This document shows positions 4,927-64,000 of a stretch of DNA of 64,000 bases, piece by piece. The notes below the pieces were generated by a model, which had not been told where the DNA came from, did no database searches, and saw only the letters and a program-made list of their open reading frames with translations. Made by a program: the position numbers and the translations under genes. Source of the DNA: an uncultured Halobacteria archaeon (GTDB lineage: Bacteria; Pseudomonadota; Gammaproteobacteria; UBA9214); the NCBI GenBank assembly GCA_963768575.1, contig CAVYIJ010000001.1, forward strand, positions 273,214 through 337,213, given 5' to 3'. Numbering within the stretch: position 1 is the first letter of the stretch; every line of letters begins with the position of its first letter.

Positions 4927-5011
<85 letters not shown>

Positions 5012-5168
5012 ATGGGTCTCCTGCTGTCTCTATCGAGGATGCCTGCTTGATGTTCTTGAATTATAACTACTTGGAAAGGGTTTGCGCACCCCAATAATCG
5101 GTAGAATTACTCCCATCCAGAACGGGCCATCAGCCCGGGCACATGAGGCCAGCGATGCTGGATTGATC

Positions 5169-5244
5169 TGGTGGGCCGTGAAGGAATCGAACCTTCAACC
5201 AATGGATTAAGAGTCCACTGCTCTGCCAATTGAGCTAACGGCCC
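5169..5244 (-). tRNA. tRNA-Lys (anticodon CTT)
   Basis: 76 nt; reverse complement is GGGCCGTTAGCTCAATTGGCAGAGCAGTGGACTCTTAATCCATTGGTTGAAGGTTCGATTCCTTCACGGCCCACCA; acceptor stem pairs; anticodon loop CTCTTAA. Confidence 0.75.
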
Positions 5245-5312
5245 GAAAGCGCGCTATTGGAGCATAGTCTGCAGGGTGGTTCAAGCAGCCCGCAGGCGGC
5301 CGGGCCGGGAAT

Positions 5313-5389
5313 TGGGGTGGACGATGGGACTCGAACCCACGACGACTGGAATCACAATCCAGGGCTCTACCAACTGAGCTACGCCCACC
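5313..5389 (-). tRNA. tRNA-His (anticodon GTG)
   Basis: Reverse complement is GGTGGGCGTAGCTCAGTTGGTAGAGCCCTGGATTGTGATTCCAG...CCATCGTCCACCA, including the His-specific extra 5' G; anticodon loop TTGTGAT. Confidence 0.9.
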
Positions 5390-5433
5390 ATAAAAAAGGC
5401 TTGCCTGCCGATCACCAATCAGCCCCTGCTGTT

Positions 5434-5510
5434 TGGCGCGCCCGGCAGGATTCGAACCTGCAACCGTCGGCTTAGAAGGCCGGTGCTCTATCCTGTTGAG
5501 CTACGGGCGC
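5434..5510 (-). tRNA. tRNA-Arg (anticodon TCT)
   Basis: Reverse complement is GCGCCCGTAGCTCAACAGGATAGAGCACCGGCCTTCTAAGCCGACGGTTGCAGGTTCGAATCCTGCCGGGCGCGCCA, closely resembling E. coli argU; anticodon loop CTTCTAA. Confidence 0.88.
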
Positions 5511-5528
5511 AGGTTACACCTCACCAAC

Positions 5529-5605
5529 TGGTCGGGGTAGAGAGATTCGAACTCCCGACATCCTGCTCCCAAAGCAGGCGCGCTACCAGGCTGCGCTATA
5601 CCCCG
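5529..5605 (-). tRNA. tRNA-Pro (anticodon TGG)
   Basis: Reverse complement is CGGGGTATAGCGCAGCCTGGTAGCGCGCCTGCTTTGGGAGCAGGATGTCGGGAGTTCGAATCTCTCTACCCCGACCA, proM-like; anticodon loop TTTGGGA. Confidence 0.9.
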
Positions 5606-49767: not shown

Positions 49768-49843
<76 letters not shown>

Positions 49844-49857
49844 TTTAACACTGTATA

Positions 49858-49934
49858 GCCCCGGTAGCTCAGCTGGATAGAGCAAGCGCCTCCTAAGCGC
49901 TAGGTCGGACGTTCGAATCGTCTCCGGGGCACCA
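49858..49934 (+). tRNA. tRNA-Arg (anticodon CCT)
   Basis: 77 nt GCCCCGGTAGCTCAGCTGGATAGAGCAAGCGCCTCCTAAGCGCTAGGTCGGACGTTCGAATCGTCTCCGGGGCACCA; anticodon loop CTCCTAA. Confidence 0.88.
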
Positions 49935-54743: not shown

Positions 54744-55352
54744 CTAGAACGCACCTTCCGCGCCGCGTTTCATTATATCCAGTATCACGTCCTTCACCTC
54801 GTTTGCCTCGTCAAACAAATCCTGCGGCAATTTTTTACCACCATGAATCATCATGTCCATGTTGAGAGTGTAGATCCATAATTTTCCGCTCTTGTCCTCG
54901 ATCAACGATAACCTGCATGGCAGGTAGGCCGAGTAGGCATCCGAGTAGGCAACCATTTTTGCAGCTGTCAGTGGATTGCAGAACATGTAGATTTTAAGAA
55001 ATCTTTGAGGTTCACCGGTCATCGCCTCGACCTGTTCTGATAACGGTAGTTCACCGACATTCTTGATATTGTGTTCGTTGGCAACAAAACGCATTGTCTC
55101 TTCAACTTCTTCGGCGCTCAAACCATCAGCGACCGGGGTTTTCCAGACAGTCGCTTCTGCCCCGTTGCCGGTCGATATGAGCCCCTTGACCATATCGGCA
55201 TAAACCGTGGGTGCATCTTCGTCAAAGGACGACAGGTTGCCGAGGTCCTTGAAATTCTGCATTCCGAAGTCATAAGCGAAAACGATCCATATCAGCCCGG
55301 CTACAACCGCGAGCCCGACAAGCGCGAACAAATTCCAGAACAATTTGAACAT
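54744..55352 (-). CDS. Membrane-anchored DUF302-domain protein
   Basis: 202 aa with an N-terminal TM anchor (FKLFWNLFALVGLAVVAGLIWIVFA) and a C-terminal region with a DUF302-like motif (KIYMFCNPLTAAKMV...YLPCRLSLIEDKSGKLWIYTLN). Confidence 0.55.
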   Translation of the reverse strand: MFKLFWNLFALVGLAVVAGLIWIVFAYDFGMQNFKDLGNLSSFDEDAPTVYADMVKGLISTGNGAEATVWKTPVADGLSAEEVEETMRFVANEHNIKNVGELPLSEQVEAMTGEPQRFLKIYMFCNPLTAAKMVAYSDAYSAYLPCRLSLIEDKSGKLWIYTLNMDMMIHGGKKLPQDLFDEANEVKDVILDIMKRGAEGAF

Positions 55353-55378: not shown

Positions 55379-56493
55379 TTACGGGTTTTCCGGGGACGTT
55401 TCCGTGATGTACTGTTCGAGCTCCTCGGAACGGGGACTTTGCAGCCCCCTGAGGACATCAACCAGCTGCCGCGCCTGATCGACGAGGCCCTCATCGGCAA
55501 GCCGCTTGCCTGCTTCAAAATACGACGCGGAAGCGAGCGTCCACTTGCCTTGCGAGAAATACATGTTGCCGAGCTCCCCGTAACCATCCGGATTATCCGG
55601 ATCAGAAGCTATCAGGGCCTGATAATTTTTCTCGGCATTTATATAGTCCCGCAACCAGTATGCCTCGCGTGCTGCGGCGAGCAACTGGTAAGGAGTTCCA
55701 GCCGGCTTGTCGGTGGCTGCTTTTGCCGGCCGCTTGATCACAGACGCATCCACATCGGGCGCGGGCTGCGTGGCGGCTGGCGCGGTACTTTCCGGGCGGG
55801 GCACTTCTGCCGTCATCGTGGTCCCCTCAAGTGCCGGTACAGCACTACTGCCAGCTGCTGCTGTCGCTTGCGCAACACTGGCAGCGGTGCTGCTTGCCGG
55901 TTTCGACCGGCTTCCGGCAACTGCGGGGAGATCCGGCGACCCGGCCATTTCGTTTTCACGGGTTTTAGTCACGGCAGCCGGATCCTCATCCGCGGAAACC
56001 TTGTCGACCGTCGTAATTGGTGGTGTAACTTTCACCGCATCGCCAATTTGTCGGGCAACCGGTTCAGGTATGCTGTCTGCAGCATCGGTATCTTCTGCAA
56101 CAGCCGCTTTATCATTCGTCGCCGGGGCCGTCGGTTCTGTAGCTGCCGTACTTGCCGCTGGCTGCACACTGGTTTTATCGTCCGCATCCGGTGCGGCGCC
56201 AGGCTGTGGCTCACCTGCGTCGACCGGCCGATTTCTGCAACCGGCGCCTCCCCTGCATCCATTTCCTGCGCCTGCATGGAGGACTGGACAGGCTGTTCGC
56301 CACTTGCCGCATCACTTGCCGTATCACTATCACTGTCTGTACTGCTTTCAAACACCAGGAATTCGGGCAGTTCCAGGTCAGGAAACAGATCGCCCCGATA
56401 GATCAAGCCAAGAGCCAGTATCGCAACCACGACCAGTGCAAAGCCATGACTTAGAATTCGTGCAAAAAGATTCATAACAAATACTCCTGCCAA
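55379..56493 (-). CDS. TM-anchored protein with acidic Ser/Asp-rich and Ala/Pro/Thr-rich disordered regions and C-terminal TPR repeats; apparent 1-nt frameshift near 56225-56235
   Basis: The N-terminal piece 56032..56493 (TM helix then ESSTDSDSDTASDAAS...) and the C-terminal piece 55379..56167 (low-complexity then TPR: AYWLRDYINAEKNYQALIASDPDNPDGYGELGNMYFSQGKW) are in frames offset by 1. The C-terminal frame stays open upstream to 56312 and reads plausible low-complexity sequence. Confidence 0.6.
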
Positions 56494-56495
56494 TA

Positions 56496-57158
56496 TTAGT
56501 TCTGATTACCGGCAACATGCGGGTAAAGCGTGGCCGCAAATTCCCCGAATTCTTCAGCCGCCTTGCCACTCGGCCACATCTCGAAAACTGCCAGGCCTTC
56601 GCTGAGCGAGCGCCTGAAACCGGTCCTCATACGTAACCGCTGCGACATCACAACATCGATGCCTTTCAGCATTTTCAAGGCCTCTTCAGTTTCTTTCGTT
56701 TCGCGAATTGATTTGTTGGTATCCGCGCGGTTTACAAATGCGATCGTGCGTTGCTTGCCATTGAGTTTAACAGCTTCCGTATCGGGACCTATGATATGCA
56801 GGAATCGCTGGGTTGCCCAGACATCTGCCTGGCTCGGTGGTACCGGCACCAGGACCCGGTCGGCGGATGTCAGGGCCTCTTTCATAGCGGCCATATTTGC
56901 CGCCCCGACATCGACCAGTACCTCGCAGTCAGTATGAGACAGCAGCTGGTCCCTGAGAACCGCACGAACGGAATGTATCTTCAGCTGCGGATTGTTACCG
57001 ATTTCCTTTCGCAACATGGCCAGGTCACTGAACGTGCACTGCGGATCAAGATCATACCCGACTACCCTGCAACCGTGTTTTTCAAGCCAGATCGCAAGAT
57101 TGAACGCGATTGTGCTCTTGCCGGAGCCGCCCTTCAGGTTTGCAATTACCGTAATCAT
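56496..57158 (-). CDS. Orphan ParA/MinD-family ATPase (deviant Walker A KGGSGKST)
   Basis: 220-aa ORF MITVIANLKGGSGKSTIAFNLAIWLEKHGCRVVGYDLDPQ... No parB-like partner or parS visible. Stop abuts the start of the TPR protein gene. Confidence 0.85.
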   Translation of the reverse strand: MITVIANLKGGSGKSTIAFNLAIWLEKHGCRVVGYDLDPQCTFSDLAMLRKEIGNNPQLKIHSVRAVLRDQLLSHTDCEVLVDVGAANMAAMKEALTSADRVLVPVPPSQADVWATQRFLHIIGPDTEAVKLNGKQRTIAFVNRADTNKSIRETKETEEALKMLKGIDVVMSQRLRMRTGFRRSLSEGLAVFEMWPSGKAAEEFGEFAATLYPHVAGNQN

Positions 57159-57865: not shown

Positions 57866-58468
57866 TCACCAGCCAGGACCCGGAAAAATGCCAGGGACAC
57901 CCCAGCCAGGAGTGCCGTAACCGGGAGCATACCCCTGGTTAGCGTACCATTCCGGCTGTAACTGCCAGACTGGCTGCGACGGTTGCCGGCGTGACGGCCG
58001 ATTGCCGTTATCCATGGCTCCCCAGGGCCTGCGCGTCACTGGTTTCCCGGCCTTGCCCGGCTCTGCAGCGGCGTATTCCGGCGCCTGCTGAACTTGCCAG
58101 GGCGAGTACATCTGGCTCGGGGAGCTGGCTGGTTTACTTTCAATTTCTCGCTTGAAGGTTCCCGGTGTTTGAGTAGCGGCACTCCATGGACGACCCTGCT
58201 CTTCGGTCCGCTGCTGATTGAAGTTGTATAAATAATCTGGAGGAATTCCCGGCCTGCCGAAACCTGAAGTTTGCCCTGACTGTTTTGGCGTTGGATACCA
58301 CTCCTTGACCGTGACGGGTTTGGACACTGCGGGTATCCCGGTATTGACAGACGAATCCGCACCGGTCTCGTCTTTTGCACAAGCGCCGGCAGTCACCAAC
58401 ACAGTGACCAACAATAGTTTGAGGAACAATGAAATATCAACATGTACTGCATACGGCCTCATGATCAA
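57866..58468 (-). CDS. Secreted (possibly lipo-) Pro/Gly/Trp/Tyr-rich low-complexity protein
   Basis: 200-aa ORF. Hydrophobic N-terminus ending ..LVTAGACAKDE, a possible lipobox. Pro/Gln/Trp-rich body with a C-terminal YAPGYGTPGWGVPGIFPGPGW. Confidence 0.6.
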   Translation of the reverse strand: MIMRPYAVHVDISLFLKLLLVTVLVTAGACAKDETGADSSVNTGIPAVSKPVTVKEWYPTPKQSGQTSGFGRPGIPPDYLYNFNQQRTEEQGRPWSAATQTPGTFKREIESKPASSPSQMYSPWQVQQAPEYAAAEPGKAGKPVTRRPWGAMDNGNRPSRRQPSQPVWQLQPEWYANQGYAPGYGTPGWGVPGIFPGPGW

Positions 58469-58497: not shown

Positions 58498-60051
58498 TCA
58501 GGGCGCCGGATACGCGCCACGGCCATAAGGTGATTGCTCCTCGTAGGCGGGTGACGGTACTTCTTCTTCCGGTCTGTTTGCGGGGCCGCGATAATATCCA
58601 AACGGCGGCATGTTCATGTAGCCCGGCGTCCCGGGTTGCCTTGACTGCCAGGCAGGCCCCGGGTAATTAAACCCGGCGGCCGGTGGCATCATTCGATCGT
58701 ACTGACCGGGCACCGGTGGCTGCATCGCAGGCGGTGGTGCGGGCCGGCGATCGTCCGTACCGGCGGCCGGGGGCATCATGCGATCGTACTGACCGGGCGC
58801 CGGTGGTTGCATGGCAGTCGGTGGCGCGGGCCGGCGATCGTCCGTACCGGCGGCCGGGGGCATCATGCGATCGTACTGACCGGGCGCCGGTGGCTGCATG
58901 GCAGGCGGTGGTTCAGGCCGGCGATCGTCTGCTATGCCGGCTGCGGGGGGCATCATGCGATCGTACTGACCGGGCGCCGGTGGCTGCATCGCAGGCGGTG
59001 GTTCAGGCCGGCGATCGTCTGCTATGCCGGCTGCGGGGGGCATCATGCGATCGTACTGGCCGGGCACCGGTGGCTGCATGGCAGGCGGTGGTTCAGGCCG
59101 GCGATCGTCTGCTATGCCGGCTGCGGGGGGCATCATGCGATCGTACTGACCGGGCGCCGGTGGTTGCATGGCAGGCGGTGGTTCAGGCCGGCGATCGTCT
59201 GTTATGCCAGCTGCGGGGGGCATCATGCGATCGTACTGACCGGGCACCGGTGGCTGCATGGCAGTCGGTGGCGCGGGCCGGCGATCGTCTGTACCGGCGG
59301 CCGGGGGCATCATTTTGTCAAAGTGCCCCGGACCAGCGGGCGGCTGCCCGGTAGCCGTGATTGCAGGTGGCGAGACAGTGCCGGTTACTGTCTGTTCGCC
59401 GGCTGACATTTGGTCGATCATAGGTTTGGCGCTGTCCGGTTGCGATGCTTCTACCGTGGTAACGGCTGATAATGGCTGTTCCTTTACGGCCGCGTCAGCC
59501 GGCAGCCCGCTTTCCACACCCGCCACCGGCGAGGCAGGTATTTCGTCTGCGGCGAGGTCTTTCGCCTGCTGCTGCCCATCTTCAGTGCCGGACAGCCGTG
59601 CTTCATCCGCCATGGAATCCACAGCAATGTCAGACTTCGCGCCCGCCACCGGCGGTGCAGACAAATTGTCTGCGGCGAGGTCTTCTCCCTCTTGCGGCAC
59701 ATCTTCAGCGCCGGACAGCCGCGTTTCATCCGCCCTGGTATCCACAGCAATGTCAGCCTCTGCGTCCGCTACCGACGGTGTGTCATGCACTTGTTCAGTG
59801 GCGTCGGGATCCTGCTGTGTTTCCGCATCAACAACGTTGGTAATCGGTGGTGTAACCCCCTGTCCCGGCACACGCGGATCGATATGCACAGGCTGGTAGG
59901 GGCCGGACGGTGGCGGCGCAGACACTACGGACCATTCTTTTGAATAGGAATAACCCGGCCCTGATTCAGCAACAAGACTGCATGGCAGCGCCGCAGTCAT
60001 CACTACCAGCAAGAAATTACCAATTGACATTATTGGAGACTGAATGGTCAT
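58498..60051 (-). CDS. Secreted acidic protein with ~8 tandem 30-aa Pro/Met-rich repeats (PGQYDRMMPPAAGIADDRRPEPPPAMQPPA)
   Basis: 517-aa ORF: a signal peptide (MSIGNFLLVVMTAALPCSLVAES), an acidic Asp/Ala/Glu-rich region, then near-identical 30-aa repeats encoded by 90-bp DNA repeats at ~58680-59340, and a Tyr/Gly/Pro-rich C-terminus. Confidence 0.75.
   Translation of the reverse strand: MTIQSPIMSIGNFLLVVMTAALPCSLVAESGPGYSYSKEWSVVSAPPPSGPYQPVHIDPRVPGQGVTPPITNVVDAETQQDPDATEQVHDTPSVADAEADIAVDTRADETRLSGAEDVPQEGEDLAADNLSAPPVAGAKSDIAVDSMADEARLSGTEDGQQQAKDLAADEIPASPVAGVESGLPADAAVKEQPLSAVTTVEASQPDSAKPMIDQMSAGEQTVTGTVSPPAITATGQPPAGPGHFDKMMPPAAGTDDRRPAPPTAMQPPVPGQYDRMMPPAAGITDDRRPEPPPAMQPPAPGQYDRMMPPAAGIADDRRPEPPPAMQPPVPGQYDRMMPPAAGIADDRRPEPPPAMQPPAPGQYDRMMPPAAGIADDRRPEPPPAMQPPAPGQYDRMMPPAAGTDDRRPAPPTAMQPPAPGQYDRMMPPAAGTDDRRPAPPPAMQPPVPGQYDRMMPPAAGFNYPGPAWQSRQPGTPGYMNMPPFGYYRGPANRPEEEVPSPAYEEQSPYGRGAYPAP
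58680..59340. repeat. Tandem 90-bp coding repeats (about 7 copies)
   Basis: CATCATGCGATCGTACTG recurs at 58771, 58861, 58951, 59041, 59131 and 59221 (period 90), with degenerate flanking copies at ~58686 and ~59306. Confidence 0.85.
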
Positions 60052-60098: not shown

Positions 60099-63000
60099 CT
60101 AGGTCAGATCCTGTTTCAGGCGAATTCCGCGTCGCTTTCTGCCGACTATATCAGTCGCATCATCAACGCTTTCATCACTGTCTTGCGTTTCCGTTTCTAT
60201 AACATCCATTTCCTCGACCGGGGTCGGCGCCATGTCCGGCGTCGGGGACGATGCACTGGTGGAGTCCATTGCCACCTGCTGTGGCGTTGATGACTCCTTG
60301 TCGTTGCCAGTCTTCGCTACTTCCCTCGGCGGGGGCGTGCCGCCTTTAGTGGCTGTCGCCGGTGTTTCCCTTGGCGGGGGCGTGCCGCCTTTAGTGGCTG
60401 TCGCCGGTGTTTCCCTTGGCGGAGGCGTGCCGCCGTGCTGGCGGGTCCTCGCGGTGGCTGTCGCCGGTGTTTCCCTTGGCGGGGGCGTGCCTCCTGCGGT
60501 GGCTGTTGCAGGCACTTCCCTCGGCGGGGGCGTACCCCCGGACGGTGGCTTCTCTCTTGGCGGCGGCGGAGTGCCCCCGGACGGTGGCTTCTCCCTTGGC
60601 GGCGGCGGAGTACCGCCACCACGTGGCGGGGGTGGCGTACCACCACCCGGCGCTGGCGCTCTCGGTGGCGGCGGAGTACCACCACCACCGCCGAACTTGC
60701 CGGCGATCCCCTTGAAGCCCATGCCAATCAGGGTAAATACCGCCTTGATCACGATGAAGATCCAGCTGAAGAAAGTAAATATCCCGCCCCAGAGTCGCAT
60801 CAGCAGCGGCGTGCCCGGTGCGCCGGGGGCAGCGTCAGGCTCAGGCTCAATATGTTCAATCCTCTGGTAGGCGGAGCTGATTGAAACGGTACCGTCATCA
60901 GAAGTTTCCACGTAAAACTGTTTCTTCGCACTGATACAGCCCAGTGGAATAATCAGCAGTGCCATGACAGTCGCCACACCGGTGCCGAACATCAGGCTTA
61001 TTGCCATGCCGTTGAAAATGGGATCCTGGATAATGGCAAAGGCGCCCGCCATCAGGGTAAGCGAGGTAATGAAAATCGGGCGCATACGCAGTTCCGCACC
61101 CCTGACAGCGGCCTCGGTGACCTCGTGGCCTTGCGCGACCTCGAGTTTCACGAACTCGACAATCAGGATCGACTGTCGAACGATAATGCCGCCCAGCGCG
61201 ATCATGCCGATCATGGAGGTTGCGGTGAACTCTGCACCCATGATCCAGTGACCCGGAATGATCCCCATCATGGTGACTGGAATCGGTGACATGATCAGAC
61301 CGGCCAATGCAAAATTCTTGAACTCCCAGACGATCAGGCCGTAGATCAGCACCAGCGCGGCCATGAAGGCGCCGCCCATATCACGGAACGTTTCGTAGGT
61401 AACGGTCCACTCGCCGGTCCACTCGTAGCCAGAACTGGTCGAGTCGGCACGGGTGCCGATGAATGTCCATTCGCCGGGTTTGCCCAGGATCGTCTTGGGC
61501 ATGGTTTCCAATTTCACGCCATCCGGGGCCGTGTATTCCTCCACCAGGTCCTCGATATGGAGCATGCCGTATATCGGCGCACCCAGGCGGCCTTCCATTT
61601 CACCGACCACATATTCGATATCGCGCAGGTCCTTGGTATAGAGGACTGGCTCCACATACCCTTTCTTGAATTGGCCGAGTTCAGACAGCGGAATGGTCCT
61701 GCCATCCGCGGTCGGAATCGGCAGGTCACCCAGCCGCGAAATCTGTGAACGCACCGCCAGCGGGATCTGCATGACGATGTAGGTCGGCTCAAGCACCGTT
61801 CCCCGCTTGATATCACCCAGTTTAAAACTACCCATGGCCATGGCCAGGCTGCCGTTGACCGTATCCACCGAGATTCCGCGACGCACCGCTTTTTCGGTAT
61901 CAACCTCGAACCGCCAGAACTCATAAGGGTCTGCCATGTATGTGTCGACATCGACCACATTCTCGACCTGTTCGAACATGGCCATCAAATCACCAGCCAC
62001 CTGGCGACGCGTTTCCGCATCGGGACCATACACTTCTGCGACAAGCGTCTGCAGCACCGGTGGTCCGGGCGGCATCTCGACCACGGCAATGCGGGCACCC
62101 ATGCTGTCAGCGATTGGCTTGAGAAGATGCCGGGCAACAACAGCAATTTCATGGCTGCCGCGGTCACGGTCGTTCTTGTCAGTCAGCATGACAAGCAGGT
62201 CACCTTCCCACGGCCGCTGTCGCAGGTAGTAATGCCTGACCATTCCATTGAAGTTGAACGGCTGGGCGGTACCGGCATAGGTGGTCACCGCAGTCACTTC
62301 GGGAATCTGGCGTACGGCCTCAGCCAGCGCCAGGGTGACATTCGCGGTATCCGGCATCGCCGTGCCTTCCGGCATGTTGACGATAACCGTGAATTCCGGC
62401 TTGTTGTCGAACGGCAGCATCTTGACCGGCACGTGCTGGGTATAGAATGTCACGCACAGCAGCGCCGTCATACCGATGATACCGAACAGGAACAGCAGGC
62501 CCAGCTTGCGGTTCTCGACCAGCGGCATGATGATCGGTCGATACATGCGACTGATGCGCGCGTGAATTTTCTTTTCTTTCTCTTCCGCTTTCTTCAATGC
62601 CGCGAAACGCGGCGCGACCTTTACTGCAAACCAGGGCGTAAACACGAACGCTGCAATCAGCGAGAAGAACATCGCCGAGGAACCCAGCACCGGGATCGGC
62701 CGCATGTACGGTCCCATGAGACCGCTGACCCAGCCCATCGGCAGGAGTGCGGCGATAATCGTAAAGGTCGCCAGGATGGTCGGGTTACCCACCTCGCGGA
62801 CCGCATCGATGGCCACCGCGACACTGGTCTTGCCCTTCATTAACCAGTGCCTGAAGATATTCTCCACCACCACGGTCGCGTCATCGACCAGGATACCGAT
62901 GGAGAAAATGAGCGCGAACAGGCTGACGCGGTCGATGGTGTAATCCACCATCATGGCCCACCAGATGGTCAGCAGGATCACGACCGGGATAACCGTGATA

Positions 63001-64000
63001 ACCACGAAGGCGGCACGCAAGCCGAGACCGACCAGGCAGAGAAGCGACACGATCACCGCCGCCTCCATCATGGCGCCGAGCAGCTCATTCACCTTGTCGT
63101 TGGCGGTCTTGCCGTAATCACGGGTCACCGTCACGTTGACATTGGCCGGTATCAGGCCGGCTCTCCCTTTCAGGTCTTCGACCTTGGCCAGTATCGCCTT
63201 GGCCACTTCGACACCGTTGGTGCCTTCCTTTTTGGCGATGGCAACGGTAACAGCGGATTCCCCCTCGGCCTTTCCGGTGTCACCGGTGTAGGCGGGCCCG
63301 GTGAAAAACGTGACCAGTTGATGCGGCTCGGCGGATTCCTGCGATACCTTTGCCACGTCACGGACATAGACCGGCGCATCGTTGCGGATGCCGATGACCA
63401 GGCGCCCGATTTCCTTGGCGGTTGTCAGGAAAGACCCGGTCCTGACCGAGAAAGACGTGCCGCTGGATTCGACATCACCCGCTGATTTTTCGGCATTCGC
63501 GGTCTGGATGGTCTGTGCGACCTGCTGCATGCTGATGCCATACCCGGACAGGCGTTCGGGCATGACCTCGACCTTGACCTGGTCTTCCCGGCCACCGACG
63601 ATGAAGCCCTTGCCGACATTTTTCACCCCGCCCAGACGTTGCAGCAGGTCGAGCGCAAGCATGCGCAGCGAGCCGTCATCGACATCCGGGGACCAGAGCG
63701 TGAGCGTCACCACGGGGACATCATCGACGCCAACCGGTTTTACCAGCGGCTGCGAGACATTCGGCGGAATCTTGTCCATGTTGGACTGGAGCTTGTCATG
63801 CACCTTGACAAGGGATTCACCCATGTCTTCGCCAACCACGAAGCGTACAGTCACCATTGCCTTGCCGCGTTCTGTCGCTGTATATGTATGGCGGACACCG
63901 GGAATTTCGAGCAGCAGGCGCTCCAGCGGCTCGGTCACCAGGCTGGAAACCTGTTCAGCCGAAGCACCCTCGTAGCTGGACGAATACGTCGATCATCGGC
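60099..64000 (-). CDS. RND-superfamily efflux transporter (AcrB-like 12-TM core, 5' end beyond window) with an extra C-terminal TM helix and ~200-aa Pro-rich repeat tail
   Basis: RND motifs (ILVDDATVVVENIFRH; IVRQSILIVEFVKLEVAQG) and two large periplasmic loops. After TM12 comes a further hydrophobic segment LLMRLWGGIFTFFSWIFIVIKAVFTLIGMGF, then ~10 GGTPPPPR(E)/TPATATKGGTPPPRE repeats and an acidic tail. The N-terminus is off-window; the first in-window residues align to roughly AcrB residue ~60. Confidence 0.85.
60290..60720. repeat. Tandem ~42-bp coding repeats in the RND C-terminal tail
   Basis: Reiterated GGCTGTCGCCGGTGTTTCCCTTGGCGGGGGCGTGCCGCCTTTAGT and variants on the plus strand, encoding the GGTPPPPRE.. 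repeats. Confidence 0.8.

Follow-up and report, generated by a model that had tools for sequence, protein, structure and literature searches.

What is a long, disordered tail doing on the end of a membrane pump? Resistance-nodulation-division (RND) pumps have been studied almost entirely as machines of 12 transmembrane (TM) helices with short termini. The question is raised by a gene near one end of a 64,000-nucleotide stretch of contig CAVYIJ010000001.1 (assembly GCA_963768575.1, positions 273,214 to 337,213), which is called the window here. This gene codes for an RND permease that runs on past TM12 into a helix, a series of proline-rich repeats and a charged end. The original prediction took the helix to be a 13th TM pass that puts the tail in the periplasm, beside secreted repeat proteins encoded next door. 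It rightly called the extension atypical of characterised RND pumps, since TriC, MexK, OqxB and AcrB all end at TM12. The analysis described here leads to a different picture of what the tail may be for. The tail is a conserved C-terminal module of a large and environmentally widespread RND lineage; it ends in a basic tag that tracks the gene of a ParA-type ATPase in a conserved cluster, and it probably lies in the cytoplasm. Neither this lineage with its module nor the association of the tag with a ParA gene is described in the literature searched, which also held no relevant paper on RND pumps with a proline-rich C-terminal extension.

The tail belongs to the protein. On the minus strand, the reading frame of the RND gene is open from 63992 to the stop codon at 60099-60101, and neither a frameshift nor a stop codon lies between TM12 and the conserved end GRKRRGIRLKQDLT. 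The predicted extension is therefore real and in frame, and it counts 276 residues beyond the end of TM12 (residue 1021) rather than about 330. The tail is present in all 120 of the best database homologues (62-85% identity, mostly 1280-1430 aa), nearly all of which end in (K/R)RRGIRLKQDL or, further out, RRGIRLKVD. Scanning one genome for each species gave 80 loci, numbered here with an L, in sulfur-oxidising Gammaproteobacteria. These include Ectothiorhodospiraceae, Thiotrichaceae, Chromatiaceae (among them Thiocapsa roseopersicina DSM 217), Lamprobacter, Sedimenticola, Woeseiaceae, Competibacteraceae and Thiohalobacter/Thiogranum. About 70 of the 80 loci have a tail of 135-394 residues, and six relatives (L069-L072, L078 and L080) end 12-29 residues after TM12. 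Counted together, the in-frame tail is found in upwards of 100 metagenomic homologues and some 70 genome loci. Because the terminal motif is kept in frame beyond a fast-evolving repeat, there is strong evidence, drawn from sequence conservation, that the whole tail is translated. The idea that the tail is non-coding or a frameshift artefact was rejected, as the tag is kept in frame in more than 100 homologues. A search of 1.84 billion representative sequences with the first two parts of the tail (linker and helix) returned 17 short C-terminal RND fragments and no carrier outside the RND proteins; the result is uninformative on the size of the family.

Four parts, a cytoplasmic linker, an amphipathic helix, a disordered spacer and a basic tag, would make up the module that defines the family (Table 1). 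The linker is modelled by AlphaFold2 (AF2) as a small beta-hairpin and a short helix, and it is absent from the tail-less relatives. Linker and helix share the conserved pattern PLWMR-L/I-W/Y-GG...W.F.I.[RK]A.FT...G.K. The helix is modelled as one continuous element from residue 1063 to 1097, with a predicted local distance difference test (pLDDT) score of 62-76, followed by predicted disorder (pLDDT of about 30). The composition of the spacer varies, with GGTPPPPRE repeats in the window's clade and Lys/Ala/Pro-rich sequence resembling histone H1 elsewhere. The repeat units of the window have periods of 13 and 15 residues, and in the DNA Tandem Repeats Finder reports two arrays of 45-bp units, one with 2.5 copies (97% match) and one with 2.3, as well as 39-bp units in 2.4-2.7 copies. 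GGTPPPPR-type tandem repeats had been correctly foreseen, as nearer ten units of 42 bp; nine units with periods of 39 and 45 bp were found. Similarly, the acidic Ser/Asp/Glu stretch was described well, but the basic last 14 residues were overlooked. These residues, the tag, come after about 180 residues with a pLDDT of about 30 and are the most conserved part of the tail. No folded C-terminal domain was found in the tail, where Pfam and NCBIfam scans gave only a chance proline-rich match and AF2 gives disorder. A GltJ match from NCBIfam (E = 0.004) was set aside as a chance effect of composition. A reading of the tag's RxxxR as a PilZ or c-di-GMP motif was rejected too, as no barrel domain follows it and a PilZ gene adjoins one locus only.

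The tag goes together with one neighbouring gene. In cluster loci with enough downstream sequence, the motif (K/R)RGI(R/K/Q)L(K/N) is found near the RND C-terminus in 34 of the 34 that have a ParA-like gene, and in none of the four that lack one. L030 has the variant YRGIRLK, and the 34 include L010, L020 and L025, in which the tag comes to light only after correction for a frameshift in the repeats. The four loci without the gene, in which no match to it was found even at E <= 10, are L043 and L061, whose tail lacks the tag, and L068 and L070, which have no tail. On a neighbour-joining tree of the RND core (78 sequences), L043, L061 and L070 are placed in three separate lineages, beside relatives that have both tag and ParA; L068 could not be placed. 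The losses of the tag fall in at least three lineages. No second copy of the tag was found elsewhere in 1.47 million residues of six-frame open reading frames (ORFs) from all loci and the window. A simple rule follows for annotators and experimenters alike: where the tag is present, ParA is present. The basic N-terminal helix of a dynamin-like protein from the same cluster was considered as a better partner for ParA and rejected; it is conserved with or without ParA and does not co-vary with it.

The partners of ParA/MinD ATPases contact them by way of a terminal peptide that is disordered and positively charged, and in the known cases this peptide is N-terminal (PMC10241942; PMC11407121). Tentatively, the RND tail could well be a cytoplasmic disordered tether that presents a candidate ParA-binding tag, as far as sequence comparison can suggest. 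The helix of about 35 residues would most likely lie in or along the cytoplasmic leaflet and anchor the tail without carrying it across the membrane. The spacer, 150-390 disordered residues of free composition, would act as a flexible line in the cytoplasm, and its conserved length with free composition fits a tether that bridges the membrane and a nucleoid- or membrane-bound ATPase. The terminal tag would engage the ParA/MinD-type ATPase encoded five genes downstream, as ParB, McdB and MinE engage theirs. The tag may resemble the (K/R)RGLGRGL peptide of ParB. The ATPase, in turn, may distribute or position the complex of the RND permease and its membrane fusion protein (MFP), together with a periplasmic structure built by sulfur-globule-protein-like (SGP-like) proteins.

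Several points weigh against the proposed binding to ParA. The co-occurrence of tag and ParA depends on the four ParA-less cluster loci. The position of the tag, C-terminal in the RND protein, differs from that of the known partner peptides, which are N-terminal (PMC11407121). Last, there is an orphan type of locus, which forms a monophyletic clade of mostly Chromatiaceae (L004, L029-L042 and L050-L063, including Thiocapsa roseopersicina DSM 217 as L042 and Lamprobacter as L053), with no MFP or cluster genes near the RND gene. In these loci the linker and the amphipathic helix are retained and the tail is strongly basic, but the tag has either gone or survives in a degenerate form (RGIQVK). 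Since the clade keeps helix and basic tail without ParA or tag, the tail must have at least one role that does not depend on ParA.

This leads to a second possibility, namely that a cytoplasmic tail has a role other than ParA binding. It could be a disordered scaffold or regulatory region, or it could bind polyanions, the nucleoid or anionic lipids, with the tag binding DNA, membrane or another cluster protein, so that the link to ParA would be indirect. The histone-H1-like tails of the orphan clade fit such a role, as do the homologous tails that match PF07382, the histone-like HC2 family. There is also a precedent in MmpL3, an RND protein whose disordered cytoplasmic C-terminal domain contributes to its localisation, which is rare among RND proteins (PMC10171966). 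However, this reading does not explain why the tag is lost wherever ParA is absent even when cluster and tail remain, as in L043 and L061, nor why the tag is kept in the window's clade, where the tail is not basic overall. It is therefore rather doubtful as a full account, and a tether with a ParA-binding tag is kept as the working proposal.

Both of these readings place the tail on the cytoplasmic side of the membrane. The termini of RND proteins are cytoplasmic, as in AcrB, and the helix after TM12 would have to cross the membrane for the tail to be periplasmic. The helix of the window is amphipathic over all 36 residues (hydrophobic moment 0.36, z = 3.8 against shuffled sequences), as it is in most homologues (z = 2-4 against shuffles), and its Arg and Lys residues fall on one face along the full length. 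In L075, L076, L082 and L083, there is no TM-competent segment after TM12, the maximum 19-residue Kyte-Doolittle mean being 0.99-1.38 (e.g., PLWAKVWGKLINAFNVLRAATMLARETIENMIERF). L076, L082 and L083 still retain the tail, an RRGI(K/Q)LK tag and the full cluster, and L075 is cut off by the contig end. In L038 the hydrophobic segment is duplicated, and in the homologues P0115 and P0120 it is about 45 residues long; if each copy were a membrane pass, the topology would be inverted in these proteins. The charge on the C-terminal side of the helix is no less positive than that on the N-terminal side, and most homologous tails are highly basic, with net charges between +8 and +38 and Lys contents of up to 23%. 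If a terminal motif is conserved throughout a family, one expects it to find one and the same partner in a single compartment, and a cytoplasmic tail is the parsimonious reading. Judged from these sequence features, the helix is probably an interfacial or monotopic anchor, with the tail in the cytoplasm.

Some of the evidence points the other way. The helix in the window reaches a maximum 19-residue Kyte-Doolittle mean of 2.29 in a segment with a hydrophobic span of 28 residues, and a crude sum on the Hessa scale gives -0.8 kcal/mol; by these values it is hydrophobic enough for TM insertion. The tail of the window's clade is roughly neutral, with a net charge of 0 in the window itself. Pro- and Lys-rich spacers also exist in the periplasm, in TonB and TolA, so a basic or proline-rich composition is no proof of a cytoplasmic location. 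One could accordingly picture a periplasmic tether, in which the helix is a true 13th pass, the proline-rich tail is a spacer like those of TonB or TolA, and the basic end attaches to a partner in the periplasm or outer membrane, or to the structure that the SGP-like proteins build. The strong hydrophobicity of the segment in the window's clade suits this picture, as does the AF2 model, which gives a single long helix like the other TM helices. The GGTPPPPRE repeats resemble the polyproline spacer of TonB, and most other products of the cluster are periplasmic (the MFP, the SGP-like proteins, DUF4412 and probably the DUF302 and tetratricopeptide repeat [TPR] proteins). Set against this are the homologues that keep tail and tag with a segment that is not TM-competent or is duplicated, the single basic face of the helix, the positive C-terminal flank and the high charge of most tails. 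In addition, the tag tracks the gene of a cytoplasmic ATPase, the tail has no globular C-terminal domain like that of TonB, and the orphan loci keep the tail with no genes for periplasmic partners nearby. A periplasmic tether is thus unlikely, and a periplasmic tail is disfavoured even with a window helix that is hydrophobic enough to insert.

The 13th TM helix and periplasmic tail of the original prediction do not hold up well on these grounds: the segment is amphipathic, too polar to cross in L075, L076, L082 and L083 and duplicated in L038, the tails are mostly basic, and the tag co-occurs with the gene of the cytoplasmic ParA-like ATPase and not with the secreted proteins. What was said of adjacent secreted repeat proteins is borne out, as the RND gene is in conserved synteny with secreted low-complexity proteins. 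The functions proposed for this arrangement fare less well. Tethering of the neighbouring proteins by the tail is unlikely because 22 orphan loci keep helix and tail without such secreted neighbours, and with Sec or lipoprotein signal peptides of their own they are unlikely to be exported by the pump.

On the evidence of sequence and model, the body of the protein is a proton-driven RND permease with the AcrB fold. The PF00873 (ACR_tran) match has an E-value of 6.9e-134 and 448 bits against a cutoff of 28, and it covers both halves of the protein. An AF2 model of residues 1-1200, built on an alignment of 88 sequences (mean pLDDT 67, predicted TM-score [pTM] 0.58), has the RND fold, with Foldseek TM-scores of 0.70-0.73 and E-values of about 1e-44 against OqxB, AcrB and CusA. 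The nearest relatives in the PDB by phmmer are TriC (6VEJ, 1.3e-58), MexK, OqxB and AcrB, with E-values ranging from 1e-58 to 1e-43. The Asp-Asp pair of the proton relay (D370/D371 in TM4) has its relay partners in R939 of TM10 (61176-61178) and the RMRPI motif of TM11 (residues 969-973), and all of these are invariant across 88 homologues. The basic residue of TM10 is Arg here and Lys in AcrB. The AcrB-like core with its TM4 and TM10 motifs had been predicted correctly, except that the frame in the window holds TM2-TM12 only. TM1 and the first 65 or so codons are beyond the window edge or in another frame, and TM1 is present in all homologues. The protein scores far below the cutoff of every curated NCBIfam RND subfamily examined (RND_permease_1/2, TIGR00915 and TIGR00914); the best score is 395 bits against 1250 for RND_permease_2, and CusA/CzcA gives 237 against 701. 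Because of these low scores, the permease can be placed, on its sequence, in a divergent lineage outside the named subfamilies. The MMPL family (PF03176) is not matched by the window protein, which matches PF00873 only; two homologues carry precomputed PF03176 matches beside PF00873.

The missing TM1 raises the question of whether this copy of the gene is functional. At about 63975-63977, the window reads GTCCAGCTAC where its closest relatives L012 and L015 have GTCC-GTTAC, and this insertion of 1 nt yields an in-frame TGA at 63993-63995. Upstream of the insertion, PMIDVFVQ can be read in the neighbouring frame, in agreement with the homologues (consensus ...PMIDVFVQYPGASAEQV). The first start codon of the ORF is then the GTG at 63938, which gives 1279 aa. 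The public protein P0001 (100% identical, 1279 aa) is annotated from this GTG and is without TM1 because of the TGA that the insertion creates. An alternative genetic code for the TGA was rejected, as other long ORFs are intact and the site is an insertion relative to relatives. The gene could be a pseudogene in this genome, with a real insertion near codon 65 or so and no functional pump or tail made, and for this one could cite the insertion relative to two close relatives, the in-frame stop, the public annotation that begins downstream of it and a frameshift in a second gene of the cluster (that of the TPR protein). However, the remaining 1297 codons are intact and keep all the invariant RND residues. 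The tail is frameshifted inside the repeats in three other assemblies (L010 at ~11029, L020 at ~11284 and L025 at ~6290), with the tag preserved in another frame just past the apparent stop, likely through indel errors in repeat DNA. Many related contigs are also named "MFD...bin" or "contig_N", which is taken as a sign of long-read assemblies. Since the intact codons, the frameshifts elsewhere and the contig names point to assembly indels, these are the more likely explanation of the frameshift in the window, and loss of the gene seems quite improbable.

The cluster around the RND gene reads, in order, a 131-aa protein, an HlyD-type MFP, the RND permease, secreted low-complexity proteins, DUF4412, the ParA-like ATPase, a TPR protein, a DUF302 protein and a dynamin-like GTPase. 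In loci of this type, the window included, there are two to five secreted low-complexity proteins, DUF4412 is usual and the TPR protein is membrane-anchored. The flanks vary between lineages, which makes the cluster itself the unit. No promoter or terminator signal above shuffle expectation was found in a scan, and no terminator lies between the RND gene and the next gene. The literature searched held nothing relevant on gene clusters that combine sulfur globule, RND, ParA and dynamin genes. The features of the window that bear on the tail are collected in Table 1.

Table 1. The RND gene, the parts of its product and the neighbouring genes of the cluster, in window coordinates
Feature	Position	Strand	Basis or remark
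RND permease gene, in-frame readable part	60099..63992	-	1297 codons + stop; PF00873, RND fold
Apparent 1-nt insertion near RND 5' end	63975..63995	-	Compared with relatives L012, L015
TM4 Asp-Asp pair D370/D371, RND proton relay	62880..62885	-	Invariant columns, homologue alignment
TM12, last canonical RND helix (model helix 994-1021), ends PLGCIS	60930..61013	-	AF2 model, sequence
Conserved post-TM12 linker AKKQFYVETSDDGTVSISSAYQRIEH..., residues 1022-1062	60807..60929	-	Homologue alignment, AF2
Hydrophobic amphipathic helix LLMRLWGGIFTFFSWIFIVIKAVFTLIGMGFKGIAGKF, residues 1063-1100	60693..60806	-	AF2, hydrophobic moment, Kyte-Doolittle
Proline-rich tandem repeats, nine GGTPPP(P)R units, residues 1101-1224	60321..60692	-	Tandem Repeats Finder; predicted disordered
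Acidic Ser/Thr/Asp/Glu-rich stretch, residues 1225-1283	60144..60320	-	Sequence
Basic C-terminal tag GRKRRGIRLKQDLT, last 14 residues	60102..60143	-	Conserved; family motif (K/R)RGI(R/K/Q)L(K/N)
Secreted 517-aa repeat protein, signal peptide	58498..60051	-	47 bp downstream of RND stop
Putative lipoprotein, Gly/Pro/Tyr/Trp-rich C-terminus	57866..58468	-	Weak orthologues in related loci
Sulfur-globule-protein-like secreted Gly/Tyr-rich protein, 141 aa	57305..57730	-	PF17228 SGP 1.7e-10, 42.1 bits vs cutoff 26.7
ParA/MinD-family ATPase, 220 aa, deviant Walker A KGGSGKST	56496..57158	-	Proposed tag partner; five genes downstream of RND
Membrane-anchored TPR protein, split over two frames	55379..56493	-	Apparent frameshift near 56170-56260
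DUF302 protein, N-terminal membrane anchor	54744..55352	-	Conserved cluster member
Dynamin-family GTPase, two C-terminal hydrophobic helices	52989..54527	-	Last gene of cluster

The 517-aa protein contains a 90-bp repeat of 7.2 copies (PPAMQPPAPGQYDRMMPPAAGIADDRRPEP) and a 123-bp repeat of 2.1 copies. Its orthologues (177-499 aa) share the two ends only, FxYSDEWSxVSAPPPxGPYQPVNIDPRVPG ... PGYxNMPxYGY...VPPPPVYDS, and no known family was matched by the protein; a YhhA match from NCBIfam in a neighbour of the RND gene was dismissed as a chance match of composition. An equivalent of the SGP-like gene is present between RND and DUF4412/ParA in 36 of 44 cluster loci (e.g., L001 16222-17137; L002 15551-15961; L003 15303-15740). 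It is recognised by a signal peptide, an AWGG or WWGP start and an APAAPAAPA(K/Q) end. The whole cluster may concern a periplasmic structure that is like a sulfur globule. The ATPase matches ParA_partition at 1e-35, which is below the curated cutoff, and ParF (4dzz) at 6.8e-7. In the TPR gene, one frame holds the N-terminal TM anchor and another the TPR domain; with that of the RND gene, there are two apparent frameshifts within 8 kb.

Outside the window, a conserved cytoplasmic protein of 131 aa (MADLFSDEWMKSFMEQWNAEPELS...) is encoded before the MFP and RND genes in most cluster loci (L001 8126-8521; L002 8106-8501), and it has no Pfam match. The rest of the window is housekeeping in nature, with genes for ClpX, CysS, PurF, a LeuC-type protein of the aconitase family, FimV, SecD, Tgt and QueA, as well as a GGDEF-EAL protein, a FleQ-like regulator and RelA/SpoT. 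There are also tRNA clusters at 4927-5605 (Leu-Lys-His-Arg-Pro) and 49768-49934 (Ala-Arg).

If the coupling of tag and ParA is true, a membrane transporter would join the cargos of the ParA/MinD family, "orphan" ParA-type ATPases would gain a partner motif, and the tag of a ParA partner could be C-terminal. It would also open a route to how sulfur-storing bacteria organise inclusions associated with the envelope. In a bolder version, the long disordered tail would start at the inner membrane and, like a line with a C-terminal "luggage tag", reach as far as nucleoid-bound ParA. RND and MFP would then link the two sides of the membrane: the ParA-type ATPase, in the cytoplasm, would use them as an adaptor to position a deposit in the periplasm that SGP-like proteins coat, for instance a sulfur globule. 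This idea is speculative and improbable; if it were right, no earlier ParA/MinD system would be known to act on an organelle in the periplasm or to use a transporter as its cargo adaptor.

How does the protein compare with systems that are already known? Its closest structural relatives are the HAE1 pumps (TriC 6VEJ, MexK, OqxB, AcrB and AcrD), with which it shares the fold, the Asp-Asp pair of TM4, the basic residue of TM10 and the Arg of TM11, as well as an HlyD-type MFP gene directly upstream in related loci. It differs from them in that identity is only about 20%, TM10 has Arg for Lys, the cluster has no gene for an outer-membrane factor, and the 276-aa C-terminal module is present in none of the solved pumps. 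The neighbouring genes invite a comparison with SgpA, SgpB and SgpC (PF17228) of purple sulfur bacteria. The match of the 141-aa protein to PF17228 is genuine, but the SGP-like proteins are neighbours of the RND protein and not part of it. In Allochromatium, the sgp genes are not known to cluster with genes for an RND pump or a ParA protein.

The tail itself can be compared with the spacers of TonB and TolA, which also have a membrane anchor followed by a long region, Pro-rich in TonB and Lys/Ala-rich in TolA. Unlike the RND tail, however, TonB and TolA are anchored N-terminally, are bitopic and end in a folded C-terminal domain, and the comparative evidence favours the cytoplasm for the RND tail. 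The partners of ParA/MinD ATPases (ParB, ParG, McdB, MinE and ParP/TlpT) offer another parallel. In the RND protein, the candidate tag is C-terminal and the carrier is a polytopic membrane transporter. Both share a positively charged peptide that ends a disordered region, a cargo that carries the tag itself, and a place near the gene of a small ParF-like ATPase with a deviant Walker A motif.

Among RND proteins, MmpL3 can be regarded as the nearest functional analogue. There is no sequence relationship between the two, and MmpL3 is without the extra helix, the tandem repeats, the terminal tag and the linked ParA gene. MmpL3 localises to poles or septa, and other factors govern this. What MmpL3 and MmpL11 appear to have in common with the protein described here is an RND transporter with a long, disordered, non-catalytic C-terminal region that serves localisation and protein-protein interaction (PMC10171966).

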